Below are positions 9,280 through 29,900 of a stretch of 32,000 bases of DNA, in pieces. The notes under the pieces are model-generated. The model did no database searches and was not told the DNA's origin. It was given only the letters and a program-made list of their open reading frames with translations. Numbering within the stretch: the first letter of the stretch is position 1; each line of letters opens with the position of its first letter. The DNA is from Candidatus Nanopusillus sp. (GTDB lineage Archaea > Nanobdellota > Nanobdellia > Nanobdellales > Nanobdellaceae), in assembly GCA_049414405.1 (NCBI GenBank), contig JBMSAQ010000015.1:30001-62000 (forward strand), in the 5' to 3' direction. The position numbers were made by a program, and so were the translations under genes.

Positions 9280-10038
9280 ATGAAAAGAAGGGGTATAGAC
9301 ATGGCTGTACAGTTGATATTCGTAATAATAATAATGTTGGTAGTAGCAGTTATTGTAATTAGGCTATTTCAGCAACAATCATCAAATATTAGCCAAATAT
9401 CAAATACACAAATACAACAGGCAGTTGCTAATTGTTTAAACTATTGTCAAGATCCAGTAACATTCTGTACAAGATATGAAAACATTGGAAATGGAATTGT
9501 ACAAGTAAGTCCTGGGTATTATGTTTGTTCAAATGCAGTTCCATGTAGTGTAGTATTACAATTATATGGAGGTCCCTCTAGTCAATGTCACTATCAAGGA
9601 TATCCAATAACACCGTTGGCATGTATGTATTTAACATGTCAACATTACATTGATAGATTATATTATACTCCGGTACAAGCAACAAGTTATGTATTTGGAA
9701 ATTATTCTTCTACTACATCATTTAATGTAGAAACTGGACAAGCGACGATTTACATTTCTTCTCCATCCCAAATATTATACCCAGGTCCAGCACAATGTTC
9801 TGCACAATTACCAACATGGATTACAAACCAAGTATTTATTGCACTGTTAAAAGTTCTTAATTACTATAATAGTGCACATGGATGTAATTTAAACTTAGTA
9901 GTCAGTAATGGAATATTAGTAGTAACGGGAAATTGTGCAGCATTGGGTATAAATAATAATAATGGTATGCCATTATGCCAATTCTTGATGAGAGTACCAT
10001 ATAATCAGTTAATTAACACACCAGCCACAACAAGTTAA
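9280..10038 (+). CDS. Secreted or anchored cysteine-rich protein with a prepilin-like N-terminus (operon gene 1)
   Basis: MKRRG-IDMAVQLIFVIIIMLVVAVIVI is a basic leader followed by a hydrophobic helix. The ectodomain has 12 Cys and several N-x-S/T sequons. I recognise no homolog. Confidence 0.6.
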   Translation: MKRRGIDMAVQLIFVIIIMLVVAVIVIRLFQQQSSNISQISNTQIQQAVANCLNYCQDPVTFCTRYENIGNGIVQVSPGYYVCSNAVPCSVVLQLYGGPSSQCHYQGYPITPLACMYLTCQHYIDRLYYTPVQATSYVFGNYSSTTSFNVETGQATIYISSPSQILYPGPAQCSAQLPTWITNQVFIALLKVLNYYNSAHGCNLNLVVSNGILVVTGNCAALGINNNNGMPLCQFLMRVPYNQLINTPATTS

Positions 10039-10043
10039 AGGTA

Positions 10044-12014: not shown

Positions 12015-12295
12015 AACTTCAAAATTCAATATATTGGATTACAATAACCTTTATATTAATTGTAGCTGCTAGTCTATTTTCTTTTTATTATATTTATAAC
12101 ATAAAAAATAGTTTAGATGGAGAAAATATACAGACTATTAGCTGTCAACAATTAAAAAATCTATACAATAAGAGTTTTCGAGAAATAATCGATATTAAAG
12201 TATTTCTTAGTGAAAATTGTACAATAAATGGAATAACAATACCTTCCGGCTATAGAATTATATATATTTATAACGGAAGTATTCATTATATATGA
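12011..12295 (+). CDS. Small pilin-like protein (operon gene 3)
   Basis: MKLQ-NSIYWITITFILIVAASLFSF N-terminus, 2 Cys, and ATGA overlaps at both ends. Confidence 0.6.
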   Translation: MKLQNSIYWITITFILIVAASLFSFYYIYNIKNSLDGENIQTISCQQLKNLYNKSFREIIDIKVFLSENCTINGITIPSGYRIIYIYNGSIHYI

Positions 12296-12771
12296 AGAAC
12301 GATATAGCAATAGATACTATATTTATAATAATAATAGCGATAATATCTGCTGTAGCTGTATTGAGTATTATATATACAAAATTCTTTAGTAATTCTCAAG
12401 CATATTATTGTCAAACATTAATATCACAAGGTGGCTTTTCCCCATCATGCAAAGAATATTATCCTTCTGCAATAAATGTTATATACTCAAATGAGAGTAT
12501 TGATACAATTTATTCAAGTATAGTGGGATTAATATTAAATTGCTACAACAATAATGTAAATACAAATAAGTTATTTGATATATGTTATGATGTTTATATA
12601 AATAGGAATATTGTCTTAAATTCGGCAACATTAATTCAATATGTACAAAATTATACTAAATTTAATCCAAATAAAATTATATTCCGTTTAAATAATAGTG
12701 AAGGGAAGATATACCCATACAACAGCATATTTATAATATACAACAATAGTTATATTATAATATGGCAATGA
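12292..12771 (+). CDS. Small pilin-like protein (operon gene 4)
   Basis: MKND-IAIDTIFIIIIAIISAVAVL N-terminus, 4 Cys, and an ATGA overlap with the upstream gene. Confidence 0.6.
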   Translation: MKNDIAIDTIFIIIIAIISAVAVLSIIYTKFFSNSQAYYCQTLISQGGFSPSCKEYYPSAINVIYSNESIDTIYSSIVGLILNCYNNNVNTNKLFDICYDVYINRNIVLNSATLIQYVQNYTKFNPNKIIFRLNNSEGKIYPYNSIFIIYNNSYIIIWQ

Positions 12772-13175
12772 GAATTCAAGAGCTTCCGATTAATTATACT
12801 TTTTTAATCTTTATTGGAATAATTGTTACATTAACAATTATAGGAATAATATTTGTATTAAGAGGAAACATATCTTCTTACATAAATAACATAATGCCAA
12901 AATACAATACTACACAGACTGTAGTAGAAACAAATGTAAATTCAATGACAACTGTCGCAATGAATGTAGTATCATGTTATTATAAAAAAGCCCAAGGTCT
13001 CTGTTATTTGATTCATTATCAAGGATCACCATTTACATGTCAAGATTTAATAAATAGAGTAAATAGCATAGATCCAAATGTTGTAATGCAAAATTGTAAT
13101 TATAATATAAACCCTGGAAAGTATATATTAATTTATTCGGCAGGAAATTATGTCTACATTAATATTCAAGGATAG
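12762..13175 (+). CDS. Small N-terminally anchored, pilin-like protein (operon gene 5); the likely true start is the ATG at 12768
   Basis: N-terminal hydrophobic helix (YTFLIFIGIIVTLTIIGIIFVL) and 4 Cys. The second Met at 12768 forms an ATGA overlap with the upstream stop. Confidence 0.55.
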   Translation: MAMRIQELPINYTFLIFIGIIVTLTIIGIIFVLRGNISSYINNIMPKYNTTQTVVETNVNSMTTVAMNVVSCYYKKAQGLCYLIHYQGSPFTCQDLINRVNSIDPNVVMQNCNYNINPGKYILIYSAGNYVYINIQG

Positions 13176-13177
13176 AG

Positions 13178-13618
13178 ATGGAGAAGTGGTTTTGGATAAT
13201 TATAACAATTGTTGCTTTTGGTTTATCTTTATATTTATATTTTAAATTTGTAGGCATAAATAATGAGACTCAATTATTATATAAAAATATATCTTCATGT
13301 CAAAATTTATATACAACAGTTGAAAGAGCGTGCTATTCCAATAACGGAACAGAATTTTATATTACTATTGAAATAAATAAATATCTAGATTATATATATA
13401 GTAATGGTAATTTACTAAGTTGTTACATATATGACAGATATTATAATTATACAGTACCTTGTAATGTAATAATAAATACAACTAATAATATGATTCAATA
13501 TTATACTTCTGGATTATTTTATGAATTGTCACGTGGAAGTCCCAATCAAAAAATACCTTTGCTTGTTAAAAAAACTTCCCCAACAGATGTAACAATTTAT
13601 ATAGAAAAACCAGGTTAA
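13178..13618 (+). CDS. Small N-terminally anchored protein (operon gene 6)
   Basis: MEKWFWIIITIVAFGLSLYLYF N-terminal helix, 4 Cys, and a 2-nt gap from the upstream gene. Confidence 0.55.
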   Translation: MEKWFWIIITIVAFGLSLYLYFKFVGINNETQLLYKNISSCQNLYTTVERACYSNNGTEFYITIEINKYLDYIYSNGNLLSCYIYDRYYNYTVPCNVIINTTNNMIQYYTSGLFYELSRGSPNQKIPLLVKKTSPTDVTIYIEKPG

Positions 13619-13654
13619 AAATTTTAAAAATTTTTTAGATATTAATAGATCATA

Positions 13655-15157
13655 ATGAAAAAAAATCAGTTAAATTTACTCTCAGTAGCAATAATGTTAT
13701 TAATCGTATCATTATCTTTCTTAATTTATTATCAATACTCTACAAATGTTAAAAGGGAACAAGAAAAATTTATATTTGAAATTTTTGTCAATAATTTACA
13801 AAATTTACAGGATACGATAAGTAATATGCAAGGTACATATTATATAAAAGTTGATATACCAAGCGGGATTATATTATATTCGAGAGATGACGAATTAATA
13901 ATCCAATATAATAATAATAATTATACAATTAATTTTCAAAATAAATCTGTAATTTTATACAATAATGGTCAAAATGTAAGTTTTCTATATCCAAATAATT
14001 ATATATATTTGATTAGTACAAATAATATTGTTTTTATTTCTGCAGATTTTAATGATACAATTTTCTTATTTAACCGATATTTACCTAATGGAACTATTAT
14101 AATTATAAATCCAGATAATAATCAAAATAATAACAATAATCAAAATCAGAATAATAATCAAACTAATCAAACTAATAACACCAATCAAACAAATAATACT
14201 ATTGACCCAAATAGTAGATGTTTAGTTAAATATACTGGACAACCAAAATTTTTCTGGGGTAATGTAAATGGAAATAATTATTTACCTCCAATAGGTGATC
14301 AAGGAGTTTGTGGAAGTTGTTGGGCATTTGCATCTGCAAATGGGATTGCTGCAGTTTATATGATAAGAAATAACAAACCTAACGAAGGATTAACACTATC
14401 TGCCGCATACATGGCAATAAAGTGCAATAGAGGTTATCCAAATACTCCAAGATATTGTGAGTATAATATGGGTTGTAATGGTGGTTGGCCATATTTAGGT
14501 ATATTATATACATCTCAATATGGTATACCAGCAGATCCGGGACGGGCACATTATAGTTCTACTTTAAAAAGATGCAATACAGGTGCTACTAGTTATCCTG
14601 GTAATGTATGTGGTTTTGATTATAACGGACCTACTTCACCAATGTATTATTCACACAGAGTTATGGAATTAGTTCAAAGAGAAAAACCCTTATCAAGTCC
14701 AGAAATAATTCAATATTTGCTATGCTATGGACCATTAACTGTTGGTGGCTTTATGGCTGGACGGGGGGGATCTAACCCAAACAAATATCCTTCAAATTTT
14801 GTAGAAACCACAGGTCATGCTATGCTGTTGGTTGGATATGATACACAGTCCCAACTATGTCAAGAAGTATATGGAACTCCAAAATGTTGGATAATTGCAA
14901 ATTCTTGGGGAACTATAACAGGATGCTTAGCTTTTACTTCAGATGGTAGAATGCGCATGATAACTCGTAGTAAAAGTGAGTGCTATAAATATTATTCAAA
15001 TTATCAAGCTTGCAGCGCTGCAATGGGAGCACCTTGTGGAGGGATTTATTGGTCACAAAACGGATATCTATATGTACCATTTGAACAGTCACCATTTGGC
15101 ATATCATTTCCCAAGTTTACAATAGTAGCAATACAAAATGTTACTCTCGCAAAATAG
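13655..15157 (+). CDS. N-terminally anchored papain-family (MEROPS C1A-like) cysteine protease (operon gene 7)
   Basis: The complete catalytic signature is present. GDQGVCGSCWAFAS supplies the oxyanion Gln and the nucleophile Cys222 (codon 14318-14320). TGHAMLLVGYD supplies His388 (codon 14816-14818). WIIANSWG supplies the Asn. The N-terminus has a MKKNQ leader plus TM helix, then a domain of about 120 aa, then an N/Q/T linker. Confidence 0.85.
   Translation: MKKNQLNLLSVAIMLLIVSLSFLIYYQYSTNVKREQEKFIFEIFVNNLQNLQDTISNMQGTYYIKVDIPSGIILYSRDDELIIQYNNNNYTINFQNKSVILYNNGQNVSFLYPNNYIYLISTNNIVFISADFNDTIFLFNRYLPNGTIIIINPDNNQNNNNNQNQNNNQTNQTNNTNQTNNTIDPNSRCLVKYTGQPKFFWGNVNGNNYLPPIGDQGVCGSCWAFASANGIAAVYMIRNNKPNEGLTLSAAYMAIKCNRGYPNTPRYCEYNMGCNGGWPYLGILYTSQYGIPADPGRAHYSSTLKRCNTGATSYPGNVCGFDYNGPTSPMYYSHRVMELVQREKPLSSPEIIQYLLCYGPLTVGGFMAGRGGSNPNKYPSNFVETTGHAMLLVGYDTQSQLCQEVYGTPKCWIIANSWGTITGCLAFTSDGRMRMITRSKSECYKYYSNYQACSAAMGAPCGGIYWSQNGYLYVPFEQSPFGISFPKFTIVAIQNVTLAK
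14156..14200 (+). repeat. Five consecutive in-frame N-x-T codon triplets (NQT NQT NNT NQT NNT), a 9-nt periodic microrepeat inside an Asn/Gln-rich linker (14117-14200)
   Basis: Read directly from the sequence: AATCAAACT AATCAAACT AATAACACC AATCAAACA AATAATACT. Confidence 0.85.
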
Positions 15158-16001
15158 AAATTTATTAGCACCTATTATAATTATTTTTATAATTTTTTTG
15201 TATATTGTATATTCTATGAATATTATATATTCTATGAAGAATCCAATAGCAGTTTATTGTGAATATGGAGGAGGAACTTATTATACAAATGATACTGGTT
15301 CTTATTGTATTATAAATAATACATATTTTGATGCTCTACAATATTATGAAAATAATGTACCTCCAGAATATTCCTTTTGTACCCATCATGGATTAATATA
15401 TGTAAATAGCAGTTATTGTAAATATCCAAATGGTACATTAGTTAGTCCATATCTATTAATTCCCCCATCCGCATATCAAGATGTAATTATACCAGAGGAG
15501 AATCTTACATTGTGTGATAATCTGTTAGATTGTTCAAATACTCCATGGTATTATCCACCATGTTCTAATCAAATTTACCCTTGTTTTGATCCTCCATATA
15601 TACCACCTTCTTACTTAGCAGGTAATGATTCTTATCAGCAACTATTGTCATACTACCGTAATTTTTATGGCTGTGGCTATTGTCCAGAGAGTTTATCTTT
15701 CCAAGGTAACTGGTTCAGATGTCCGTACAATTATTCATTAAATCAATTATATCAAGAATTTCTACAAAAATGTCCACCACCAAGTATTGTTTATATTTCT
15801 TGTACTGGCGTATTTGAATGTATAAATCAAACTGAAATGAATTTAACAAATAATCTTACAAATAATAATCAACAATTAATTTATCCACAACCAAATATAA
15901 GTACTAATAACAACAATAACGTTAATTTGATTTTACCAACAGCAATGGTTATAATTATAGTAATAATAGGCCTATTTATGTTATTATATTATCTAAAATG
16001 A
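15138..16001 (+). CDS. Cys/Pro-rich surface protein with a DUF333-like N-terminal motif and TM helices at both ends (operon gene 8)
   Basis: KNPIAVYCEYGGGTYYTNDTGSYCIINNTYFDALQYY resembles the DUF333 pattern NPAxxYCxxxGG...G..C...W. It has 14 Cys and a C-terminal anchor (ILPTAMVIIIVIIGLFMLLYYLK). It overlaps the protease gene by 20 nt. Confidence 0.5.
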   Translation: MLLSQNRNLLAPIIIIFIIFLYIVYSMNIIYSMKNPIAVYCEYGGGTYYTNDTGSYCIINNTYFDALQYYENNVPPEYSFCTHHGLIYVNSSYCKYPNGTLVSPYLLIPPSAYQDVIIPEENLTLCDNLLDCSNTPWYYPPCSNQIYPCFDPPYIPPSYLAGNDSYQQLLSYYRNFYGCGYCPESLSFQGNWFRCPYNYSLNQLYQEFLQKCPPPSIVYISCTGVFECINQTEMNLTNNLTNNNQQLIYPQPNISTNNNNNVNLILPTAMVIIIVIIGLFMLLYYLK

Positions 16002-17626
16002 AAAATCAAATAAATACTATAACCTTTGTTATTATAATTTCAATAATATCATTGTCAGTTCTATTATATATTTTAATATCAAGTGACTACAATCAAAAAA
16101 CAATGCAAACATATAATGTAGAAAATCAATACACACTAACAATCCAGAATAGTATTGTTTTATTATCATATATTGATGATAATAAAGTTAACTTATCCTA
16201 TGCATTTTTATTATCTTATTTTTCATCTTCTGGAAATGATACATACTGCATAAATCGAAATATATGTACGAATATATCACAAACCATAACAAATTACTTT
16301 AATAGTATATACGGAAATAGATGGAACTTTACAATATATTTTGTACCACCAGTAACTGGCTGGATCGTTCAGATGTTTGTAGTGGCCGGTAATATAAATA
16401 ATTGGGATCCATGTTCAATGAGACCTCCACCAGATCAAAATGGCAAACAATGGTATGAATGGGATTATACGTATTTCTTTACAAATAATTATGTACAGAA
16501 TATTGATATACCAGTAAGACTGACTATATATGGAGCTGGATGGGTTAATGCAACAGCACCCTTCCATCAAACATTATCAACAAATTCTTGGGGATTACAA
16601 TCATTTTATCCACAACAATCACAAGCAATAGCTATACAATTAGGATATTGTGAACCTCTATCAAGAATATTTCCAAATTATAATTTTAATGAAGCTTCTG
16701 TATATTGTCCAAATAGTGAATGGCATTTATTTCCAAATTTTTTGGGTGTAGGTGGTGTACCAGCCCAACCAGTATCTAACTTACCAAATTTCTTTTCCGG
16801 ATTCTTATGCATATATACAGGATCTTGTCCGGTAACTAACAATCAATATTTAACCTCCACACCTTATTATTATCAAGGTCCTCCCGTTTATAAAACTGCC
16901 ACTGACATAAATAGACTAGCAGATTCTATAATCCCAAGAGAATATTTAGATGCAGCATGCCAACAAATGTTTGGTACAAGATATACGGGTAATTCTCTTT
17001 GTGGGGGTGGTCAAGTTTTAGTTGTAGGATCTTTTTACAGAGGTGTAGCAAATATACCACCACATTGTCAACAAATATTCATAGATTACCCATGGCATGA
17101 AACAATAGCTTTATATATATCCTACATAAATAAAAATGGACAACCAGATTATGTATTTTTAGCAGCAGATCCTTTGTGTGAATATAAAATAAATGGGAGA
17201 ATAATAAGATGTCCAACTGGTGTATATAATGACATACAAAATATAAACGGAATTATTATTGGAAAAGAATGTCCTTTAGTTTATTTAGGTGGTATTAATA
17301 CATATTCTCAAGGATTTTATAGATTTAATATTACTAAATGGGTAATAAATAATAGGGATCCAAATACAAATCAATTTATAATTTCTGCAGTATATTATGA
17401 TCCACATGCTGGATCAAATGGTGTTGCAATGGCGAGAGCATATTGTATTACTGATACAGGAAACAAAGAAGAATTAAACGCTTATATTTACCAAGGTAGT
17501 CAAAATAGTGTAAGTTTAGGATATCCAATACCACCAAATACAAACATATATGTACATTACATATATTTGCCAGTAAATATGCCTTTTCTAGGCGGATATC
17601 TTGTCGCTAAATTAACAGTATGGTAA
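15998..17626 (+). CDS. Large N-terminally anchored (prepilin-like MKNQ leader) secreted protein of unknown fold (operon gene 9)
   Basis: MKNQ-INTITFVIIISIISLSVLLYILI N-terminus, 14 Cys, and an ATGA overlap with the upstream gene. Confidence 0.6.
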   Translation: MKNQINTITFVIIISIISLSVLLYILISSDYNQKTMQTYNVENQYTLTIQNSIVLLSYIDDNKVNLSYAFLLSYFSSSGNDTYCINRNICTNISQTITNYFNSIYGNRWNFTIYFVPPVTGWIVQMFVVAGNINNWDPCSMRPPPDQNGKQWYEWDYTYFFTNNYVQNIDIPVRLTIYGAGWVNATAPFHQTLSTNSWGLQSFYPQQSQAIAIQLGYCEPLSRIFPNYNFNEASVYCPNSEWHLFPNFLGVGGVPAQPVSNLPNFFSGFLCIYTGSCPVTNNQYLTSTPYYYQGPPVYKTATDINRLADSIIPREYLDAACQQMFGTRYTGNSLCGGGQVLVVGSFYRGVANIPPHCQQIFIDYPWHETIALYISYINKNGQPDYVFLAADPLCEYKINGRIIRCPTGVYNDIQNINGIIIGKECPLVYLGGINTYSQGFYRFNITKWVINNRDPNTNQFIISAVYYDPHAGSNGVAMARAYCITDTGNKEELNAYIYQGSQNSVSLGYPIPPNTNIYVHYIYLPVNMPFLGGYLVAKLTVW

Positions 17627-18825
17627 AAAAACAAGATAAAATTTTATTTCTTTTATATCTATTAATATTCTTATTTTTTACTTTTGATAGTAAATTTGAT
17701 ATAAATGTAATTATCTTTGGTACAATATACCTATTCTTATTATCTTTTATATTAAAAAATTCAAAGAATACTTCTTTGATATATAAGTCGGTATTCTTAC
17801 TTATACCAATTATAATTTTTGGAACTCTCTATTATCAAGATTGGCCCTTATTAGCACGTTTATCGCTTGGTCTTGCAATAAATTATTGGCTATTTTACTT
17901 TATAGCATTTGCTCTAGGATATTATTTATTTGAAAATAATTTTTATATTTCAAAAAAATCTTTGATATTTTATGTACTTTCTTTAGTTTTATTTATAATA
18001 TTATTTTTCCTTGAAATAGTAATCAACGTTATAACCATGGATTTAGAAGTAGCAACAGGACCTATAGTCGGTTCGGTCATTAACTTTGCATTATCAAATT
18101 TTTATACTTTCAAAATATTATATTCAACTTTGTTTATTGTATTTGCTATATTTCTATTTCTAGTTATACGTTTTAATAGAAATGAAATACTTATAGTAAG
18201 AACAAAAATATTCAAGAAGTTGTCAGAAATTTATAAATATAAAAAGTATATATTTTTATCAATATTTTTTATTATAATAATACAACTTATTATTGCTATA
18301 TATGGATTATCATTCTATAGTAATCTAGCTTCAGAAAGTTTAATTGTAAAATATCAAATCACTGTATATAAAGCTCTTATACTTTTATCAATATTTGAAT
18401 TTATTATTTATTTTTTAATTTATAAGAGCATGAAAAACGATCATTTCACAAATTATTTCTTATTATTTACCATGGTTTTAATAATATTCTTTGGTGCATT
18501 ATTCACATCGTACAAAGATTTTGCTTCTTATGCCATACATACAAGATATCTTATGGCTGTGATATTTTTCTTCATGGGAATGCATTATAAACTATTTAGT
18601 AATGTTAAAAAACCAATTAAAAAAGCCATTGGTATTACAATTGGAATATTACTTCTAATACAAGTTATAATTGGAGAACTGCTCGAATTTGCAGTATATG
18701 GAGGTCCCCCATTAAGTATATTAGCTATACCAAATATAATGAAAATACTTGGCATAATACATGGACCAGTGGTAACAATACTCATATTAACACTTATATA
18801 TCTTCATGTTAAGTTAGAAATATGA
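17620..18825 (+). CDS. Polytopic integral membrane protein of unknown function (operon gene 10)
   Basis: About 10-12 hydrophobic helices across 401 aa, with no recognisable catalytic motif. The start overlaps the upstream stop (ATGGTAA). Confidence 0.6.
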   Translation: MVKKQDKILFLLYLLIFLFFTFDSKFDINVIIFGTIYLFLLSFILKNSKNTSLIYKSVFLLIPIIIFGTLYYQDWPLLARLSLGLAINYWLFYFIAFALGYYLFENNFYISKKSLIFYVLSLVLFIILFFLEIVINVITMDLEVATGPIVGSVINFALSNFYTFKILYSTLFIVFAIFLFLVIRFNRNEILIVRTKIFKKLSEIYKYKKYIFLSIFFIIIIQLIIAIYGLSFYSNLASESLIVKYQITVYKALILLSIFEFIIYFLIYKSMKNDHFTNYFLLFTMVLIIFFGALFTSYKDFASYAIHTRYLMAVIFFFMGMHYKLFSNVKKPIKKAIGITIGILLLIQVIIGELLEFAVYGGPPLSILAIPNIMKILGIIHGPVVTILILTLIYLHVKLEI

Positions 18826-20057
18826 GAAATCAAACAGAAAGTATTTATGTAGTTCTATTTTTAACAGTTTCTATATTGATAATTCTTCTATCTTTTTATG
18901 CGCTAACATATAGTTACAATCAGAATGTTGTTTTTGGTAGATTTACATCTTTATCGACTTTATCAAACTACCTTTTAGGATATTTACAAACAGCATTAAC
19001 ACAAGAAGGTTATGCAAAATCTTATGTAGCAGGAACAAGTGGTTGGGGAAAAGAAAACTGGGCCTCTTTTCCTCCTCAGTGCATATTACCACAACCATGT
19101 GAAAATGCAATTCAATATTACAATAATTTGATAACTTCTGGATTTACAAGCTTAATAAGTTATGGAGAACAATATTTATTTGCATATAGGTACTATCATC
19201 CGTATAATATATCTTTCAATTTCTCAAACAATTATCGAGCTGGTCTTCTAGGAACCTGTGATGACGTTGTTTCTGGAAGATATAATTATAGTTTTCCCAT
19301 TTATGTTCAGGGAGTATATATAAATATTACCGGACCTTCTTCTGGTTCAATAATCCCCTATGCATCAACATCAAATATAACGAACAATCCAGCATTTTAT
19401 TTATATAATTTAGCATATCAATTTTCTTTAGAAGAATTTCCAGAATGTTCCTTTCAAGATTGTGTAAATACATTATTTAATAGCGGTCCAACCGACAACT
19501 GTGCAAGAAGATTTGAACAATTCTCAAATAATCCAGATATTAAATGTAATGAAACAATAATCCCACATGAATGTGTAGATATTCCGTTATGTAAGATATG
19601 TTTATATCCCAGAGCAATTGCCTGTAGAGTAATATTAAAATGTTCTGACAATCGATATAATGTATATTTTAATGGGAATGCATATCCGCAATCCATAGCT
19701 ATTACTTCAATAGTTTTTTATGAAAATGTAACAAACAAGTATTATCTAAATTGTATATATAAATGTGTTGGAATATACAATGAAACAAATAAGACAGCGA
19801 TATCGAAAAGTTGCACATTACAAGATCAACAATATTCATGTTCCCCAATATATGGATGTGGTGATGTAAGCATAAGTAGGAAAGATTCAAAAATAATATT
19901 TACATTCCCATATTATTATTCAATTCCAGTTGAATGTTATATGTGTATAATCGGTGGAGAAGAATGTCCAGTATGTTTGCCCGGACAATGTCCTAACAAC
20001 CCAACATGCCCAGAAACAATACCATTCCCAGAGGAATGTATAGAAGATTATCTCTAA
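18822..20057 (+). CDS. Large cysteine-rich (24 Cys) N-terminally anchored secreted protein (operon gene 11)
   Basis: MRNQ-TESIYVVLFLTVSILIILLSF N-terminus and a C-terminal Cys cluster (ECYMCIIGGEECPVCLPGQCPNNPTCPETIPFPEEC). ATGA overlap with the upstream gene. Confidence 0.6.
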   Translation: MRNQTESIYVVLFLTVSILIILLSFYALTYSYNQNVVFGRFTSLSTLSNYLLGYLQTALTQEGYAKSYVAGTSGWGKENWASFPPQCILPQPCENAIQYYNNLITSGFTSLISYGEQYLFAYRYYHPYNISFNFSNNYRAGLLGTCDDVVSGRYNYSFPIYVQGVYINITGPSSGSIIPYASTSNITNNPAFYLYNLAYQFSLEEFPECSFQDCVNTLFNSGPTDNCARRFEQFSNNPDIKCNETIIPHECVDIPLCKICLYPRAIACRVILKCSDNRYNVYFNGNAYPQSIAITSIVFYENVTNKYYLNCIYKCVGIYNETNKTAISKSCTLQDQQYSCSPIYGCGDVSISRKDSKIIFTFPYYYSIPVECYMCIIGGEECPVCLPGQCPNNPTCPETIPFPEECIEDYL

Positions 20058-20065
20058 TATGAAAG

Positions 20066-20713
20066 ATGAAAGGACAATTTTCTATAGTATTTATAACAAT
20101 ATTAACTGTATTATTTTTATTAGGTATGGTGCTTTTATTAGCAATATTTTCTAGCATTAATTTAACAAATTATAAAGAGCAAACTTCTTTTTCATATCAA
20201 CAAAAAATAATATACAGCCTATTTTCTCCAAATTGTATAGGATATCCAAATTATCCAATATACTTTACAACAATGGAAAAAATAAGACAATTCAATCAAA
20301 CATATTATAATATGCTTCCAAATTGTACAATATTTCCTTATACATTTAGAGCAGAAATTGGTAATTATAGTTTTGGAATTATAAATTTTAATGGAAATTG
20401 TAATACGCATACGTATCCAATTTCAGTATATTATTCTTTAGATTATATCAAATTAACCATATGTAAAAATTATTATTCAGACTTTTATTATTTCTTATAT
20501 AGTTTTTGTTTGAGTGATAAAAATATTTCAAATCAAACTTTTGTATTTCTATTTCCAACAAATTTATCTGGAAATATTACATGTACAGAAAATACAAATG
20601 GAAATATTATATGTAATTACATACCATGTTATTCAGTAAATAATATTACATTTTATCAACTTGTAACAGTATATGTAAAAAGAATTAATCAAACACATTT
20701 CATGATTGCATAG
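20066..20713 (+). CDS. Pilin-like protein with a canonical class III signal (operon gene 12)
   Basis: MKG-QFSIVFITILTVLFLLGMVLLLAIF matches the archaeal prepilin pattern [KR]-G followed by Q and a hydrophobic stretch. It has 8 Cys and many N-x-S/T sequons. Confidence 0.65.
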   Translation: MKGQFSIVFITILTVLFLLGMVLLLAIFSSINLTNYKEQTSFSYQQKIIYSLFSPNCIGYPNYPIYFTTMEKIRQFNQTYYNMLPNCTIFPYTFRAEIGNYSFGIINFNGNCNTHTYPISVYYSLDYIKLTICKNYYSDFYYFLYSFCLSDKNISNQTFVFLFPTNLSGNITCTENTNGNIICNYIPCYSVNNITFYQLVTVYVKRINQTHFMIA

Positions 20714-21569: not shown

Positions 21570-22184
21570 ATGGATAAAAGAAAGATGATTGATGAATTAA
21601 ATAATCAGATATCAAAATGTACTAGATGTCCCTTATATAAATATAAAACAAATTATGTTCCTGGAGACGGTAATCCAAATTCAAGAATATTATTTATAGG
21701 AGAAGCACCGGGTAGGGAAGAGGATAAACAAGGAAAACCATTCGTTGGAAAAGCTGGACAAGTATTGAATGAAAATATAAAAAATATATTAAACATAGAT
21801 AGAGGTGATGTGTATATAATCAATGTTGTTAAATGTAGACCTCCAGAAAATAGAGAACCAAAAGAAGAAGAAATAAAAGCATGTTCTTTTTGGTTAGAAA
21901 AGCAATTAGAAATAATTCAGCCAGAAATAATAATAACTTTAGGTCATTATTCAACAAAATGGATTTTCGATTATTTCAAATTAAAATTTTTTTCAATAAC
22001 AAAATTAAGGGGAAAAATATTTAAAGTAAATAAATGGGGAAAAAATATCACAATAATACCAACATTGCACCCAGCATCTACATTATATCATAAAGAATGG
22101 AGAGAATATTTTGATCAAGATTTTAAAACAATAAAAGAAATATTAAATAAAGATAAAAAGGAAGGAATATTAAAATTTATATGA
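21570..22184 (+). CDS. udg: Uracil-DNA glycosylase, family 4 (Fe-S type)
   Basis: CTRCPL...[47 protein letters not shown], and LHPAS. Confidence 0.9.
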
Positions 22185-22231
22185 TGATGTTGCGCGCGAC
22201 TGAATAAATGATGAATACACCTCCTTCCTGA
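22181..22231 (+). ncRNA. C/D box sRNA (2'-O-methylation guide)
   Basis: All four boxes match consensus: C box AUGAUGA (22181-22187), D' box CUGA (22200-22203), C' box AUGAUGA (22208-22214) and D box CUGA (22228-22231). A 12-nt guide lies at 22188-22199 and a 13-nt guide at 22215-22227. The element forms a GC-rich island in AT-rich sequence. Confidence 0.75.
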
Positions 22232-22233
22232 AA

Positions 22234-22241
22234 AAATATAA
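22234..22241 (+). promoter_or_regulatory. Candidate TATA-like element (AAATATAA) for the 22265 gene
   Basis: The centre is 27.5 nt upstream of the ATG at 22265, directly after the sRNA D box. Confidence 0.3.
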
Positions 22242-22264: not shown

Positions 22265-22651
22265 ATGGATAATATTCAAGATTTAGAAAACCAATTATTA
22301 ACTCAAATCAAGAATTTATTATCACAAATAAATAGCAATATTTTGCAATTAGAAAGTTTAAATGCATATGAAAAAAATATTAATGAGAACCCTTACTATT
22401 TATATAATTATCAAATGCAAGAAATTAATAATTTAATAAATTCAATGAAGTTATTAATAGGTGTTTTGGAAAGTATAAAGGATTATATAACTCTATATTA
22501 TAAAGAAATAAGTAGAAACCCTTATATAACACCAAGTATAAAAATAGAAATTCTTGGACAGATAAATAATGGAATAAAAGAAGTAAAAAGTTTGATAGAT
22601 AAATTGTTTATAGAGATAGAAATATTAACTAATAATTTACAGAGATTTTAA
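22265..22651 (+). CDS. Hypothetical protein, predicted helical or coiled-coil
   Basis: 128-aa ORF with heptad-like Leu/Ile/Asn/Gln-rich sequence. No recognisable family. Confidence 0.45.
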   Translation: MDNIQDLENQLLTQIKNLLSQINSNILQLESLNAYEKNINENPYYLYNYQMQEINNLINSMKLLIGVLESIKDYITLYYKEISRNPYITPSIKIEILGQINNGIKEVKSLIDKLFIEIEILTNNLQRF

Positions 22652-23479: not shown

Positions 23480-23770
23480 ATGAACGATATTGTCGCAATA
23501 ACTTATGGTTTATCATTCTTAGTAGGATATTTATCAGCAGATTATATAATTAAAAAATTTTCGCCAGAATTATTTATTGAAATTAAAACACAGACAAAAA
23601 AATATAGGACAAAAATCCATCATGTATATTTATCAATAATCGGGATGTTAACATATTTATATGAATTATATGTATTAACATCTTTGTTTCTCGGTGCTGC
23701 AATTCATGATGCAATATTAGAAATAAGAAAGAAGTTAAAAAAATTAGATTATATTAAGCAAAATAAATAA
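23480..23770 (+). CDS. Small membrane protein (2-3 TM helices), unknown function
   Basis: 96-aa ORF with hydrophobic segments (IVAITYGLSFLVGYL, VYLSIIGMLTYLYELYVLTSLFLGAAI). Its 3' end overlaps the convergent surface-protein gene by 27 nt. Confidence 0.45.
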   Translation: MNDIVAITYGLSFLVGYLSADYIIKKFSPELFIEIKTQTKKYRTKIHHVYLSIIGMLTYLYELYVLTSLFLGAAIHDAILEIRKKLKKLDYIKQNK

Positions 23771-26700
23771 TCCCAATATTAAACTTACAATTCCAATTAA
23801 ACCTGTTAAAGATATTCCTTCAGATACTATTATTTGGGGGGGCTGTGTATAATTAGCTATTACATTATTTGGTCCCAATACATATATTGGAACTTGGGTA
23901 CTATATGTTGAAGACCCATATGTAGAATTACATGTTATTCCGTATATTAAATTACTTACACCACTAGAAGCTCCCAAGATTCTTATATTTAATTCTGAAG
24001 ATTCGTAAGGACCTATGGTAAATACATTATTATTTACACCATTTACACTATAGTTAGTAACAATTGCATTATCATTTGTGGTTGATGGAATTGGTATTAG
24101 AGAACATTGAATATTTGTTGGTACCAAATTCTTTATCAAGATTGTATATTCATATTCTTGTCCTACATATAAACTTATCACATTTGTTAAAACTGCTATT
24201 CCTATTATTGATGTTTGATTTGTTAAATAATTATAGTACATATAATTTCCGAAGAATTTTGCATAATCATTTACTGCTTGAATTTGCGTATTACATAATG
24301 ATCCTGCACACATATATTGTTGATATACAAAATTTGAATTACAATTTCTAGGGAATTGAGCCCCATTAAATATTATATAACATTCTTGTGTATTCTTATC
24401 TACTATATTAAATGTCGTTAATGATTGTAGTTGTGCTCCATTTGGTGGGGAAATTATATAACTTATTGGTAATATTATTGAATAATTGTATATGTAAGTA
24501 TTCCATCCATAAATTGTAAACGTTATATTATAATCCTGTGAAGAACAATATGGGTTTGTTATATTAATTTCTACATTTAAATAACCTATGTTATTTGTAT
24601 CTAATGAATCTATCTGACCACCGGTATTTAATACCTGTATACAATTTGGATTATAATATACATTTCGTACAGATATGTTTTTAGCAGGTACTGGTCCTGT
24701 ATTTTGTATTACCAATGTTATATTTGATGTTTTTCCATATGTTATCTGCGTTAATGATGGATTAGTGTATATATTTAATGTATTCCACTTGATATCTACA
24801 TATCCGTAATATGTTACTGAAGGATAAACTGTCAGTCCATATGCATTTTGATATGTTACACTATAATTTATTCTACAGTCATAATGTGGACATAAATTCG
24901 TTGGGAAATAAATATATAGTGGTGAATTTTGTTGCTGTTGTAATAAAAAACTCATTGATTTAACTGGAAGTGTTTGGTTTATAATTATTGTAAGATTCCC
25001 AATTCCAACGTTAGATATATTACCGATATAGATTGCAACACCCGGATTTATATTGTAAATATATGGATAATACGTTATATTTTGCAAGTATATAGTAGCA
25101 TTTGGATTTATTACTAATAAATAATATCCAGGTTCTGGAAATATTGGTAACCATCCTTGTGCTTGTCCGGTTATATACCCAATATTACATAAATTTCCAT
25201 TTGCATCACATATATATCTTGCTGGATTATCACATATTGTTTTTACATAATCCTGATATATTACATAATAACCAACATTATTACTAAAATTATACAAAGT
25301 AAAGTAAGAACGTATAGTTGAGGAACTTCCCGATATTAATAATCCTTTATTTGGATATATATTGTAAACAGTATTTCTACTTATATTATATTGTGTGAAA
25401 TTAAATGGGAGATTTGATATACCTTGTAAATACTGGAAAGAGTTTGGATGATAATATTGATTTGATCTATATAACCAAGCAACAACAGATGGTATATTAT
25501 CTCTTGTAACACCATCACTACACAAAATATTATATCCGCTACTTACACTAAATCCTACAGAAGTATTCTGCGCTAAAACATATATTCCGTTATAATATGT
25601 ATAATATGATCCAGAATATGGTCCATAATATGAAAAGCGTATAGACATAGGATTTGAACTAACACTAGTTATTGTCCATGCGTGGAAACATGATTGAGTA
25701 GTAAATCCTCCGGGGTTAGCTACCAATACTTGCAATGGATTATTAATAAATGATTGATTAAATAGTGTATTGTTATAATAATATCTTCCATAGTATGTAT
25801 AATTTCCAGCATTGTTAGTATAATCTCTTAAATATAAATCACATAAATTTTGACCCCACTCCGGATCTCCCGATCCGGGACAGTTTGTTCTAGTAACTAC
25901 ACTTGTTCCATTTGGAAAAATTAATGTAAAGTTAAAGAATGTATTATTTAATAACCTACTTGAAGAAGGACAACCTGGAATTATTCGTACAGCATTACTT
26001 GCTCCTTGATATATGGGATTTACATAATATTCAAAATAATATGGATAATTTAAATATATTGATCCACTATAATTATATTGACTACAATTGGATGATGTAC
26101 AGTTTCGAACAGTTATATTATAATTTATTATTGTAGAATTCATATCATTTGGTAGGTTTAATGGTAAATTATTAAAGTATACTGTATAATTATAAATAGA
26201 TATATTATTTCCTGAATAACTATAATTACCACTTGCGAAAATTTGTGAAATATTTGATGAATTATAAAACTTATAAGAAACTGTTATAGATCCATTAAAT
26301 CCTTGCGTTATTATATTTAATGAATCTGCTGGTATACATATTTGGCTTGTACTTAGATATAGTTCCTGAGAATGCACATTAAATAATAGTGGTAATAAAA
26401 CTAATGCAAGGATAAATAATTTTTTTCTTCTCAATATCATAAACAATATTATTGCAGCAAAAATTATTAATATTATTAAATAATAGTTTGGATAATTATA
26501 ATTGTTTTGTACATTATTTATTGGTTGAGTTTGGTTTACACTTATATTATAATATGGCATTCGCATTACTGTATCTATTATCCATAGATATGAATATTGT
26601 GGTGAATGGAAGAAAATATAATAAACCCCACTACCTAATGTATAATTTAGACAATTATTATTTATACTTGTGGTATATATTATGTTCGATTCAGAATTGT

Positions 26701-28012
26701 ATCCTATATTTAATATTCCAGAAATATTTGAACATATATAGAAGTAATTGTCTGTATAGTCTACATAAATTAAATCATCTATTGGAATTCCATAAGTATT
26801 TGATTTATTTATGAAATAATATGTACAATAACCATAATTTAAATTATTATTTAAATTATTATTAGAATATAAGTTTATACATAAATCAAAGCTGGTAGAA
26901 TTTAATGGTAACTTTAGATTTACATAAGTAAATTTAGTATTATTCCAACTTATATTTCCCAATTGTATATTCTCTTTAAATCCAAGTATATTTGAATAAA
27001 CTTCTGCTACTACATTTGGAGTGACTGGATATGTATAATGATCTGGAGATGGTGTTACTATAAATGTTAAATTTCCATTACCCTGTAAATATACGCCTCC
27101 CAATCTTGTTGTTGGACCTAGAACAATAAATCTTAATCTATATATAGATTTTGTTTGATCATTATGTAATAATTTTATTGCTAATGAATATGCATTTGGA
27201 TTCAATGCTGCAACATTTATGTATGGAATATTTATTGTATTATATCCTTCCTTTAGTTGTATATTTTCAGTATAATTATATATTGGATTATATAGGATAT
27301 CATCCCATGGAGATATTAAAATATTCAAAGTAGCATTAGTATCTTTACTTGAATATATACTAACTGTTAAATTAATATAATTTGAAACACCATAACCAGT
27401 AGGTCCACTTAATGAAGAATAATAATATCCTGATGATGATAACAAACTACCCCATGTATATAATGTGGAAGAACTTAAATATGTGTGATCTTTTATAATA
27501 TAAATTTCCGGAACATTATTTGGATTATTCACATAAAATTCTTTATATACTCCTGGATAATATATAAACGGTAAACCATTTATTTCAATTAAAGGTGTGT
27601 ATAAATATGCAACAATATAGTAATGTCCAGAAGGTAAATTATCTGGAATTGTATAATTTAATCGTATATTTAAAGATTCTCCTGGTTGTAAATATATGTT
27701 CTTTATCACATATTCATATACCTGATTATTTGATGTAAATTGGAATGGATATATATCATTATTATTATCAGTTTTTTGTATTATTTGTATTACTAATGAT
27801 ACATTTGGTATATAATAAATATCTCTATAATTTATATGTACATCATAATACAATGTTTGACCTACAGATAAATTATAATTTAATAAATTTATACTTAAGA
27901 ATGCTGTTGGTTTATATAAATATTCTGAATGCCATATGTTATACCCTTGAGAAAATATTGGATATAATAAAAACAAAAGAAATGATAATAAATACATCTT
28001 TTTCTTTTTCAT
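23744..28012 (-). CDS. Giant (1422 aa) sequon-rich cell-surface protein, possibly an S-layer or adhesin type, built from two signal-peptide/ectodomain/TM-anchor modules
   Basis: N-terminal signal peptide (MKKKKMYLLSFLLFLLYPIFSQG), C-terminal TM anchor (LTGLIGIVSLILGLFILLNII), and an internal TM-RRKK-signal-like segment around aa 509-548. Dozens of N-x-S/T sequons. Segments such as SNITLVIQNTGPVPAKNISVRNVYY and YLQPGESLNIRLNYTIPDNLPSGHYYIV resemble CARDB / archaeal S-layer-domain beta-sandwiches. Confidence 0.8.
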   Translation of the reverse strand: MKKKKMYLLSFLLFLLYPIFSQGYNIWHSEYLYKPTAFLSINLLNYNLSVGQTLYYDVHINYRDIYYIPNVSLVIQIIQKTDNNNDIYPFQFTSNNQVYEYVIKNIYLQPGESLNIRLNYTIPDNLPSGHYYIVAYLYTPLIEINGLPFIYYPGVYKEFYVNNPNNVPEIYIIKDHTYLSSSTLYTWGSLLSSSGYYYSSLSGPTGYGVSNYINLTVSIYSSKDTNATLNILISPWDDILYNPIYNYTENIQLKEGYNTINIPYINVAALNPNAYSLAIKLLHNDQTKSIYRLRFIVLGPTTRLGGVYLQGNGNLTFIVTPSPDHYTYPVTPNVVAEVYSNILGFKENIQLGNISWNNTKFTYVNLKLPLNSTSFDLCINLYSNNNLNNNLNYGYCTYYFINKSNTYGIPIDDLIYVDYTDNYFYICSNISGILNIGYNSESNIIYTTSINNNCLNYTLGSGVYYIFFHSPQYSYLWIIDTVMRMPYYNISVNQTQPINNVQNNYNYPNYYLIILIIFAAIILFMILRRKKLFILALVLLPLLFNVHSQELYLSTSQICIPADSLNIITQGFNGSITVSYKFYNSSNISQIFASGNYSYSGNNISIYNYTVYFNNLPLNLPNDMNSTIINYNITVRNCTSSNCSQYNYSGSIYLNYPYYFEYYVNPIYQGASNAVRIIPGCPSSSRLLNNTFFNFTLIFPNGTSVVTRTNCPGSGDPEWGQNLCDLYLRDYTNNAGNYTYYGRYYYNNTLFNQSFINNPLQVLVANPGGFTTQSCFHAWTITSVSSNPMSIRFSYYGPYSGSYYTYYNGIYVLAQNTSVGFSVSSGYNILCSDGVTRDNIPSVVAWLYRSNQYYHPNSFQYLQGISNLPFNFTQYNISRNTVYNIYPNKGLLISGSSSTIRSYFTLYNFSNNVGYYVIYQDYVKTICDNPARYICDANGNLCNIGYITGQAQGWLPIFPEPGYYLLVINPNATIYLQNITYYPYIYNINPGVAIYIGNISNVGIGNLTIIINQTLPVKSMSFLLQQQQNSPLYIYFPTNLCPHYDCRINYSVTYQNAYGLTVYPSVTYYGYVDIKWNTLNIYTNPSLTQITYGKTSNITLVIQNTGPVPAKNISVRNVYYNPNCIQVLNTGGQIDSLDTNNIGYLNVEINITNPYCSSQDYNITFTIYGWNTYIYNYSIILPISYIISPPNGAQLQSLTTFNIVDKNTQECYIIFNGAQFPRNCNSNFVYQQYMCAGSLCNTQIQAVNDYAKFFGNYMYYNYLTNQTSIIGIAVLTNVISLYVGQEYEYTILIKNLVPTNIQCSLIPIPSTTNDNAIVTNYSVNGVNNNVFTIGPYESSELNIRILGASSGVSNLIYGITCNSTYGSSTYSTQVPIYVLGPNNVIANYTQPPQIIVSEGISLTGLIGIVSLILGLFILLNII

Positions 28013-28037: not shown

Positions 28038-29900
28038 TTAAATATTTTTACCGGTTGCAATTTCTATAACTTCATCTATTGTTTTTACAGGTGTTATCTT
28101 TATTTTATCAAATAAGTCTTCCGGTATATCATTATAATTACTTTCAGGTACTATAACTTCTTTTAATTTAGATTCTATAGCTGCTTCTATTTTTGCTATT
28201 ATACCACCAACAGGTAATACTTCCCCCCTTATTGATAAAGAACCTGTCATCGCCAAATCTTGTCTTACTGGCCAATTCTTTAATGCAGATATTATTGCGG
28301 TTGCAACAGTTATTGAAGCTGAATCTCCTTCTACACCTTCATATGTCTGCAAAAATTGAACATGAACTCTATATTTCTTCAAATCTTCTCCAAATTTCTT
28401 TTTTATTACTGCGGATACATTTACTATTGCTTCCTTTGCAATTTTTCCCAAATTTCCTGTTGCAATAATTTCCTTACTACCTTCTCCGGGTACAACTTCT
28501 GCCTCAACAGGTAATACCAATCCTGAATAATATAATCTTGATCCAATTACTGCTAAACCATTTACTCTTCCAATTTCATATCCTTCAGTTTTTATTATTT
28601 GATATTCTCTCTTTTTTTCAATATAATATTTAGATAATTGTTCTTCAATTGTTAGTGTTTTTTCCCTTGCTTCTATAACATCTTCAGATTCTACATATTT
28701 TTTTCCTTTTGCTCTTGCAATATCTCCTGCCAATCTTACTAATCCACCCAAATCTCTTAATCTCAATGTTAAATAACTTTTTCTTCCAGATCTTCTTTGT
28801 GCTTCCCTAATAACTTCTATTACAGCTTCCTTTGTAAAATGTGATATATTACCTGTCTTTTTAACTTCTTGTGCAACAAATTGGGCAAATTTATTTGCAC
28901 TTTCTTCAGTAAATAATATTTCAGAATTCATAAATACTTCATACCCATATCCTCTTATTCTTGATCTAAATGCTGGGTGTAATTTCTCTAATGTTTCTAA
29001 ATTTCCAGCCGCCACTAATACAAAATCGGCAGGAGCTGGTGTAGTTCTTACCATAGCACCAGCAGATCTTTCAGATCTTCCAAATATTGAATATCTCTTT
29101 TCTTGTAAAACAGATAATAATTCTATCTGAACCTCTGGTCTTAATGTTCCAACCTCATCTATGAACAATACACCTTTATTTGCCTTATGTATTGCACCCG
29201 CAATTACTCTTTGATGTGGTGGAGTTTCAAGACCACCAGATTGAAATGGGTCATGTAATACATCTCCGAATAGCATACCTTCAAATGCTCCTGTAGCATC
29301 TACAAATGGTACAGAAGTTCTATTTGAATTATCAACTAGCAATTTTGGTATATTTTTCATTATTTGCCTTTGCACTACTTGAAAAGAAAAGGACAAACTT
29401 GCCATTAAAATCATAAATCCAATAAATGTTGCACCAGCCATTATATAATTTCCTATATAGTAAAAGTACATCGGAGTAAATGCTGATATAAGTAATAATA
29501 AAATATAAAAATATCTAAACATCTTTGTTTGCTCTAATACTCTTTTTCTCATTTCTTCTACAATCTTTTTACCAGTTCCCATTGGAACTGTTTTTATTAT
29601 TGGTTGATATTCATCATTTGGATTTGGAAATACAAGTATATCTTCTAAATTTTTAACTTGTTCTTTATCTTCTGATAATATTTCTGCTAATGCCTGTGCT
29701 AACATAGATTTACCAGTACCAGGATCTCCTATCAGCAAAACATGTCTTCTCTGTTTAGCGGCTTTTCTAATTATGTCCAATGCTTTATCTTGTCCAATAA
29801 TTTGCTCTGATATTTTTTCAGGTACACTTATTTCTTCCGTGGTTTTAAATTTAAATATATTATGTAGGTCCTTTATAGATATTGTTCTATTTTCAGACAT
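28038..29900 (-). CDS. lonB: Archaeal membrane-bound Lon protease (LonB)
   Basis: Walker [20 protein letters not shown] and Walker B VLFIDEV. Two TM helices are inserted in the AAA+ module ([17 protein letters not shown]..., [17 protein letters not shown]). Protease Ser in [16 protein letters not shown] and Lys in [12 protein letters not shown]. Confidence 0.95.

Follow-up and report, generated by a model that had tools for sequence, protein, structure and literature searches.

A predicted dual-guide C/D box sRNA for 16S rRNA methylation overlaps the udg stop codon in a Nanopusillaceae-type nanoarchaeon

The steps by which archaeal C/D box ribonucleoproteins (RNPs) act, with L7Ae, Nop5, and fibrillarin as the proteins and methylation placed by the N+5 rule, are established biology. 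In N. equitans, whose fibrillarin and NOP56 are encoded by NEQ125 and NEQ342, respectively, C/D sRNAs of the same architecture as the one described here are abundant; most of them overlap mRNAs, have no recognizable promoters, are apparently processed, and have unpaired ends (Randau 2012 Genome Biol 13:R63). One of these sRNAs, sR15, carries the D guide AGAUGCGCGCGG, with a predicted methylation in ACGCGmCGCAUCA (i.e., Neq 16S-1197; Randau 2012 Genome Biol 13:R63, Additional file 2), and is marked N15 in Dennis et al. 2015 BMC Genomics 16:632. For sR13 of the same organism, the methylations Am1408 and Am1534 were verified experimentally (Seistrup et al. 2017 NAR 45:2007). Several sRNAs, including sR120 of M. 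kandleri, are marked on a 100-nt block of 16S rRNA that contains the helix 34 stretch considered below (Dennis et al. 2015 BMC Genomics 16:632, supplements 1 and 3). In Pyrobaculum, the C box of 23 C/D sRNAs supplies the stop codon of the upstream gene (Lui et al. 2018 NAR 46:5678). In the following paragraphs, we describe a nanoarchaeal locus in relation to these systems.

The window (i.e., the whole 32-kb stretch of DNA analyzed) has a G+C content of 27% and encodes archaeal RNA polymerase subunits, TFB, LonB, and the ribosomal proteins S24e and S27ae. All the elements of a C/D box sRNA were located on its forward strand at positions 22181 to 22231. Box C (ATGATGA in DNA, AUGAUGA in RNA; 22181 to 22187) is followed by a 12-nt D' guide (TGTTGCGCGCGA as DNA, UGUUGCGCGCGA as RNA; 22188 to 22199), box D' (CTGA, CUGA; 22200 to 22203), a D'-C' spacer (ATAA, AUAA; 22204 to 22207), box C' (ATGATGA, AUGAUGA; 22208 to 22214), a 13-nt D guide (ATACACCTCCTTC as DNA, AUACACCUCCUUC as RNA; 22215 to 22227), and box D (CTGA, CUGA; 22228 to 22231). 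As in other archaeal C/D sRNAs, a box C of the form RUGAUGA lies near the 5' end and a CUGA box D near the 3' end, the D' and C' boxes are internal and separated by a short loop (about 3 to 9 nt is usual), and the guides, of 12 and 13 nt, are close to the usual length of about 12 nt. The guide cores and boxes are kept among relatives while the flanks vary, and in the 16S rRNA of a relative the guides find complementarity of at least about 9 bp that includes the nucleotide 5 from box D or D'. At the sequence level, the element has every feature of an archaeal dual-guide C/D box sRNA. This agrees with a preliminary description of the window, which had named it a canonical sRNA of that kind, and each box, guide, and spacer listed there was found in its place.

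A strict regular expression describing the four boxes at the spacing usual in archaea, applied to both strands of the 32 kb, matched once in the window and in none of 300 first-order Markov shuffles. A relaxed version of the four-box pattern is expected 0.04 times per window. At the gathering score, Rfam gave no match for the sRNA region. In E-value mode, two generic archaeal C/D families, sR11 (RF01150; 26 bits, E = 0.004) and snoPyro_CD (RF00095; 23.9 bits, E = 0.004), aligned end to end with positions 22177 to 22234 on the forward strand only, where the E values (about 0.004) are those computed for a 221-nt stretch; a window-wide scan in the same mode returned no C/D-type match besides these two at the sRNA. 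Although boxes and spacing aligned with both families over their full length, the scores lie below the gathering cutoffs (26.0 versus 39 bits for sR11 and 23.9 versus 45 bits for snoPyro_CD), the match lies in the boxes, and the window guides differ from the family consensus. The predicted RNA lacks a stable self-structure (−1.6 kcal/mol at 37°C and 0 at 80°C), which fits the N. equitans sRNAs with their unpaired ends.

The upstream gene, udg (21570 to 22184, forward strand), encodes a family 4 uracil-DNA glycosylase (UDG; Pfam PF03167, E = 1.1e-36), and its homologs in Nanopusillaceae and Nanobdella are named type-4 UDG. The last 4 nt of udg are shared with the sRNA: the stop codon TGA (22182 to 22184) forms the first of the two UGA triplets in box C, and the other (22185 to 22187) is in frame with it. 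The double use of box C as the stop of udg, which had been pointed out before, is confirmed here, and the same layout was present in all seven homologous loci (the window and six other lineages). On the 3' side, an open reading frame (ORF) of 128 amino acids without a Pfam match (22265 to 22651, forward strand), syntenic in all related loci, begins 33 nt past box D and bounds the sRNA gene. The gene order of arginase, udg, and the 128-amino-acid ORF, followed by S27ae and S24e on the opposite strand, was kept in all the relatives fetched. No tRNA genes were found in the window, and genes for fibrillarin, Nop5, and L7Ae were found neither within the 32 kb nor in the gene tables of related loci. 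The Pyrobaculum sRNAs of Lui et al. (2018) resemble this arrangement in that the overlap is on the same strand and RUGAUGA provides the translation stop, with excision from the mRNA and protection by the RNP proposed. They differ in belonging to Crenarchaeota rather than Nanoarchaeota, and the overlap of the window type was kept in all seven lineages examined. A C box serving as a stop codon is an already reported phenomenon and not a new one.

No exact copy of the window's UDG was on record among public assemblies, and relatives of the locus were recognized through homologs of this protein. Homologs with 92% identity to the window's UDG were found on JGI hot-spring-type metagenome contigs, those with 77 to 83% identity in Nanopusillaceae metagenome-assembled genomes and in the 773-kb genome AP031373, and one with 68% identity in Nanobdella aerobiophila. 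Together with the archaeal genes and low G+C content of the window, these homologs point to a Nanopusillaceae-type nanoarchaeon as its source. Six further lineages (L001/L002, L003 from AP031373, L007/L008, L005 from Nanobdella aerobiophila AP019769, L009, and L134) have the sRNA directly behind udg, and their UDG identity to the window is only 65 to 92%. Across the seven loci, the sRNA had a mean pairwise identity of 0.89, against 0.79 in udg DNA and 0.67 in the downstream 34-nt spacer. Changes in the element concerned its D'-C' spacer, the ends of the guides, and the flanking sequence. Where the UDGs are only 65 to 68% identical, the identity of the 3' spacer falls to 56 to 71%, and the G+C-rich guides are kept. 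The udg homolog L135, which is about as distant, is not followed by the sRNA.

The boxes are constant in the seven loci except in L003 (G for A at the first C-box position) and L134 (GUGAGGA as box C'); the D' and D boxes (CUGA) are invariant. The spacer between D' and C' differs among homologs in sequence and in length (3 to 4 nt). The guides measure 12 nt (D') and 12 to 13 nt (D). In the D' guide, the core UGCGCGC is invariant and variation concerns one or two positions at either end. In the D guide, counted from box D, ACCUCCU at positions 3 to 9 is invariant, and six of the seven loci have C at position 10 (U in L134) and at position 2 (U in the window). The three 5'-most positions read AUA in six loci, with CU in L009.

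The targets were assigned on a 16S rRNA gene from a relative whose UDG is 65% identical to that of the window. [quoted passage not shown] One such match, P0122 (motifs RGGVW and GYTRATMGG), came from the ENA contig ERZ1669411 NODE_2430 (L131), where a flank of 24.5% G+C is followed by an archaeal 16S rRNA of 62 to 67% G+C (Rfam RF01959, 1,310 bits). NODE_2414 of the same assembly (L134) carries arginase, udg, and the sRNA. The two contigs probably come from one organism, judging by the shared assembly, their coverage (12.2× for L134 versus 11.5× for L131), and their base composition. Every guide variant was slid along the L131 16S rRNA, in which the two target stretches read GCUGAGAGGAGGUGUAUGGCCACC and GGGCUACACGCGCGCAACAAUGGG. 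E. coli numbers were counted on the E. coli row of the alignment of Dennis et al. 2015.

The best site of the D' guide in this 16S rRNA was ACGCGCGCAACA, equivalent to E. coli 1227 to 1238, with 11 of 12 Watson-Crick pairs and −22.0 kcal/mol. The target predicted earlier for this guide, UCGCGCGCAACA, accordingly exists in the relative, as ACGCGCGCAACA (11 of 12 positions). The same stretch, E. coli 1227 to 1238, reads GGGCUACACGCGCGCAUCAAUGG in the 16S alignment of Dennis et al. 2015. By the N+5 rule, the D' guide is predicted to direct a Gm at the equivalent of E. coli G1231, and the target expected in the 16S rRNA of the window organism is CGCGCGCAAC at E. coli 1228 to 1237. The guide of Nanobdella has a C at position 10, which is mismatched with A1236 of the L131 16S rRNA. 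Placement of the D' target in 16S helices 35 and 36 (about E. coli 1100, GAGCGCAAC) had also been considered and was ruled out in favor of 1227 to 1238 by the N. equitans table and the alignment.

Two pattern scans bear on this site. Genome contigs were scanned for GCGCGCANC-N{137,167}-GCACACACCGCCCGTCA, which yielded at least 120 loci, the matches listed being 16S genes of Woesearchaeota and Nanoarchaeia. In these loci the D' site reads CACGCGCGCAACAAUGG (11 of 12 positions matching the predicted target). No Nanopusillaceae occurred among the matches listed; the scan anchor is unable to match 16S rRNA of the Nanopusillaceae or N. equitans type, because both read GCACUCAC(U/C)GCCCGUCA. The sole match of a metagenome scan for GAGGAGGTGTATGG-N{165,190}-GCGCGCAAC, L130, was G+C-rich and had no Rfam match, and it was set aside as a chance match that is not rRNA.

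The D' guide shares its target nucleotide with the D guide of N. equitans sR15 (Neq 16S-1197), i.e., the same nucleotide, the equivalent of E. coli G1231, is predicted for both. Both sRNAs have compact boxes, 12-nt guides, and no terminal stem. In sR15, however, the G1231 guide occupies the D slot, the other guide targets 16S-919, and the gene lies between NEQ373 and NEQ375 with its own promoter reported. By sequence, the D' guide of the window is functionally equivalent to the D guide of sR15.

For the D guide, the best site in the L131 16S rRNA was in the 5' strand of helix 34, AGAGGAGGUGUAU (E. coli 1044 to 1056). The consensus guide forms 12 of 13 Watson-Crick pairs there (−21.6 kcal/mol), and the window guide forms 11 Watson-Crick pairs and 1 G-U pair (−19.7 kcal/mol). 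Aligned by hand, the guide of L134 itself (AUAUACCUCCUCA) forms 11 Watson-Crick pairs and 1 G-U pair with the L131 16S rRNA at positions 2 to 13; the shorter guide of L009 (CUCACCUCCUCC) forms only 9 pairs. The N+5 rule places the predicted methylation of the D guide at the equivalent of E. coli G1048. In the 16S rRNA of the window's lineage, the target is expected to read GAGGAGGUGUAU at E. coli 1045 to 1056, with the core GAGGAGGUG(U/C)AU. A target in 23S helix 81 (ACGGAGGAG) was considered as well and was superseded by the helix 34 match. In the at least 120 Woesearchaeota and Nanoarchaeia 16S loci, the sequence closest to the complement of the D guide is again in helix 34, GAGAGG(A/U)(G/A)GUGCAUGG, at a candidate site 191 to 193 nt upstream of the D' site.

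The helix 34 stretch resembles a Shine-Dalgarno (SD) sequence: each of the seven archaea in the alignment of Dennis et al. 2015 has GAGAGGAGGUGCAUGG or differs from it by one base. The D guide resembles the anti-SD sequence because helix 34 holds the SD-like GAGGAGGUG, and any guide against helix 34 must contain CACCUCCUC. The preliminary description was right that the guide carries an anti-SD-like sequence, CACCUCCU, oriented like the 3' end of 16S rRNA, which reads GGAUCACCUCCU in the alignment of archaea. The further idea, of an unusual guide aimed at SD-like mRNA sequences, is not supported: the complement was found in 16S helix 34 (12 of 13 pairs for the consensus guide), and M. kandleri sR120, with an anti-SD-like guide, is annotated on the same 16S stretch (Dennis et al. 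2015). CACCUCC occurs in no N. equitans sRNA of the table of Randau 2012.

The guide of sR120, GAUGCACCUCCG, is complementary to GGAGGUGCAUC in helix 34, and the D guide of the window is predicted to target the same stretch. The two differ in that the methylation by sR120 would fall about 2 nt downstream, at the G1050 equivalent by our own reading. They also differ opposite position 1054: at guide position 11, the D guide has an A that pairs with an unusual U at the C1054 equivalent of the L131 16S rRNA, whereas sR120 has a G at that guide position, opposite the usual C1054. In addition, sR120 belongs to another phylum and lies in another context.

Together, these data indicate that positions 22181 to 22231 of the forward strand very probably encode a canonical dual-guide C/D sRNA of about 51 to 60 nt in a Nanopusillaceae-type nanoarchaeon, with predicted Gm1048 and Gm1231 sites in 16S rRNA. 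The C/D and C'/D' kink-turn motifs would be bound by L7Ae, after which Nop5 and fibrillarin would assemble. Each guide would pair with 16S rRNA over about 10 to 12 bp, and fibrillarin would 2'-O-methylate the nucleotide opposite guide position 5, counted upstream from box D or D'. The equivalents of G1048 and G1231 are separated by 183 nt and both belong to the 3' major (head) domain, the folding of which the RNP may therefore also assist.

The sRNA could in principle do more than guide methylation. It is nevertheless distinctly unlikely, in our estimation, that the predicted sRNA covers the SD-like strand of helix 34 during assembly and averts mispairing with the anti-SD sequence, or that the RNP on the kink-turn at the udg stop could couple translation or decay of the udg mRNA to sRNA output. 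Masking of this kind would parallel the role proposed for N. equitans sR13 on the anti-SD side, and it could be linked to the rare U of this lineage at the C1054 position. Both sR13 and, by prediction, the window sRNA are dual-guide sRNAs of nanoarchaea that act on the SD/anti-SD family of sequences in 16S rRNA. The D guide of sR13 (GAGGAGGUGAUA) pairs with the anti-SD tail and gives the verified Am1534, whereas the window guide is of the opposite sense and would pair with helix 34.

Distinctly unlikely, too, is a real C/D sRNA whose main role is that of an rRNA-folding chaperone masking the SD-like strand of helix 34, or that of a cis element at which L7Ae bound to the stop controls udg translation or decay. 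The helix 34 sequence GAGGAGGUG is complementary to the 16S 3' tail CACCUCCU, and N. equitans sR13 was proposed to cover the anti-SD sequence and helix 44 and so to time 16S folding (Seistrup et al. 2017). Chaperone roles of dual-guide sRNAs and binding of L7Ae to kink-turns in mRNAs have been discussed (Dennis 2015, Lui 2018), and the overlap of stop codon and C box is kept in seven of seven loci. That overlap, however, is also the simplest result of genome compaction, and the udg of L135, which has no sRNA behind it, implies that udg has no need of the sRNA. The N+5 rule is satisfied at both guides, and no datum here distinguishes a chaperone or cis role from plain methylation guiding.

Action on mRNAs is very improbable. 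Here the D guide would pair with the SD-like GGAGGUG of mRNAs and methylate them, or it would mimic and compete with the anti-SD tail of 16S rRNA. The guide does contain CACCUCCU in the same sense as the 16S 3' end GGAUCACCUCCU, and targeting of mRNAs by C/D sRNAs was raised as a possibility by Lui et al. 2018 NAR 46:5678. Yet the top site of the guide is 16S helix 34, with a 12 of 13 match, and guide positions 11 to 13 (AUA), which lie beyond the SD core, match the 16S-specific UAU. Within the window, an SD-like 4-mer occurred at −20 to −1 in only 1 of the 27 ORFs of at least 100 amino acids. The 9-nt core GAGGAGGUG was absent from the whole window, and the 13-mer with up to 2 mismatches had only two other matches there, which is near chance. 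A search of the window for the target of either guide gave a sole exact match, the antisense of the sRNA itself. The reading as a chance motif in AT-rich intergenic sequence after a UGAUGA tandem stop, devoid of RNA function, is close to refuted, since the AT-rich genome, the UGA stops that make UGAUGA likely around gene ends, and the lack of a gathering-score match in Rfam are outweighed by the absence of the four-box pattern from all 300 shuffles, by G+C-rich guides that are kept at 65 to 68% UDG identity while the spacer drifts to 56 to 71%, and by the single best sites of both guides falling in one 16S rRNA.

The most likely source of the sRNA is the 3' part of the udg mRNA; its bound proteins would shield it while the remainder of the message decays. 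Protection of the sRNA by its RNP during mRNA decay was proposed by Lui et al. 2018 NAR 46:5678 and also by Tripp et al. The alternative source would be an internal promoter in the 3' end of udg. A TATA-like candidate for such a promoter, TTAAATAA, lies inside udg at 22143 to 22150 of the forward strand, 31 to 38 nt upstream of box C, and a similar A/T element was found at an equal offset in five of the seven homologs. Because the genome is very AT-rich and the coding sequence that holds this element specifies many lysine and asparagine residues, conservation of the element is ambiguous and no evidence by itself. Between the two sources, both named in the preliminary description, we somewhat favor cotranscription with udg followed by trimming.

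By all of these sequence comparisons, the window holds a real but ordinary archaeal 16S methylation guide, and current understanding is unchallenged. Any sRNA directed at helix 34 can be expected to carry an anti-SD-like guide, so guides of this kind should not be taken as regulators of mRNAs. That the C box doubles as a stop throughout the seven lineages, even where UDG identity is only 65%, is useful for the annotation of compact DPANN genomes. To our knowledge, almost no sRNA annotation exists for the lineage of the window; for this lineage, the locus contributes a well-supported C/D box sRNA, whose two predicted sites in 16S rRNA are the equivalents of Gm1048 and Gm1231.

In helix 34 of the 16S rRNA gene carried by a relative's contig (L131; ENA ERZ1669411 NODE_2430), the equivalent of C1054, which is normally conserved, is U (L131:3143; GGUGUAUGG). 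In a published alignment, the equivalent of position 1054 is C in seven archaea and E. coli (Dennis 2015). The D guide of the C/D box sRNA (22215-22227) is predicted to pair with this helix, and its position 11, counted from box D, is A in six of the seven sRNA homologs and pairs with the L131 U at the C1054 equivalent. The recurrence of this A suggests that the C1054-to-U change is widespread in the family. Among the Woesearchaeota and Nanoarchaeia 16S matches listed, GUAUGG was seen only in L079, a locus from the motif-anchored genome scan.

A second 16S motif, CACGCGCGCAACAAUGG (E. coli positions 1226 to 1242), was common to over 100 genomes of Woesearchaeota and Nanoarchaeia among the matches listed (L010-L129); at this site the published alignment shows GCG(G/A)G(C/U)U(A/G)C for the other archaea it includes (Dennis 2015). 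Some of these contigs were labeled "uncultured Methanosarcinales," "Acidobacteriota," "Gammaproteobacteria," or "Ignavibacteriaceae" and may be mis-binned DPANN rRNA contigs.

The L131 decoding centre (L131:3490-3506) apparently reads GCACUCACUGCCCGUCA, a reading that is provisional because it lies about 20 nt from an adaptor-derived contig end. To our knowledge, GCACACACCGCCCGUCA is the sequence in nearly all organisms. Two changes are apparent, equivalent to A1396-to-U, which N. equitans shares, and C1400-to-U. Nextera transposase adaptor sequence (CTGTCTCTTATACACATCT) was detected at the ends of L131 (3528-3578) and of L134 (3572-3595), the contig of the same assembly (NODE_2414) that carries arginase, udg, and the sRNA. 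The ends of these two contigs are artefactual and do not affect the sRNA or the target sites in the 16S rRNA.

No C/D sRNA was found 3' of a udg homolog with 65% identity to that of the window (L135:714-722; ENA ERZ23499768), where the next gene begins 8 nt downstream. Because this homolog lacks the sRNA, the udg-sRNA linkage is, on this comparison of sequences, confined to a subclade.

Elsewhere in the window, RNA polymerase subunits A (1615-4290 and 570-1664) and B (adjoining ORFs at 4287-6089 and 6091-7608, reverse strand) are each split in two, as is usual in many archaea; the subunit B pair divides Rpb2 into domains 1 to 3 and domains 4 to 7. Eleven tightly packed, co-directional ORFs (9280-20713, forward strand) retain their synteny in four related loci (L001, L003, L005, and L007). 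The sole Pfam match in this block is a papain-like cysteine peptidase (13655-15157), and at least one of its ORFs (18822-20057) is cysteine-rich. Nearby is a 1,422-aa ORF with no Pfam match (23744-28012, reverse strand). LonB protease has 620 aa in the window (28038-29900, reverse strand) versus 1,088 to 1,094 aa in AP031373 (L003:16582-19848) and Nanobdella aerobiophila (L005:16422-19706), and so the insertion seems to vary in presence among close relatives. Its LAGLIDADG match suggests an intein.

Of the 27 window ORFs that are 100 aa or longer, only 1 has a Shine-Dalgarno-like 4-mer within 20 nt upstream, and a TATA-like A/T-rich sequence often lies about 25 to 30 nt before the ATG (e.g., 22232-22241, preceding the ORF at 22265). 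The rarity of such motifs and the TATA-like spacing are consistent with mRNAs that would be mostly leaderless.
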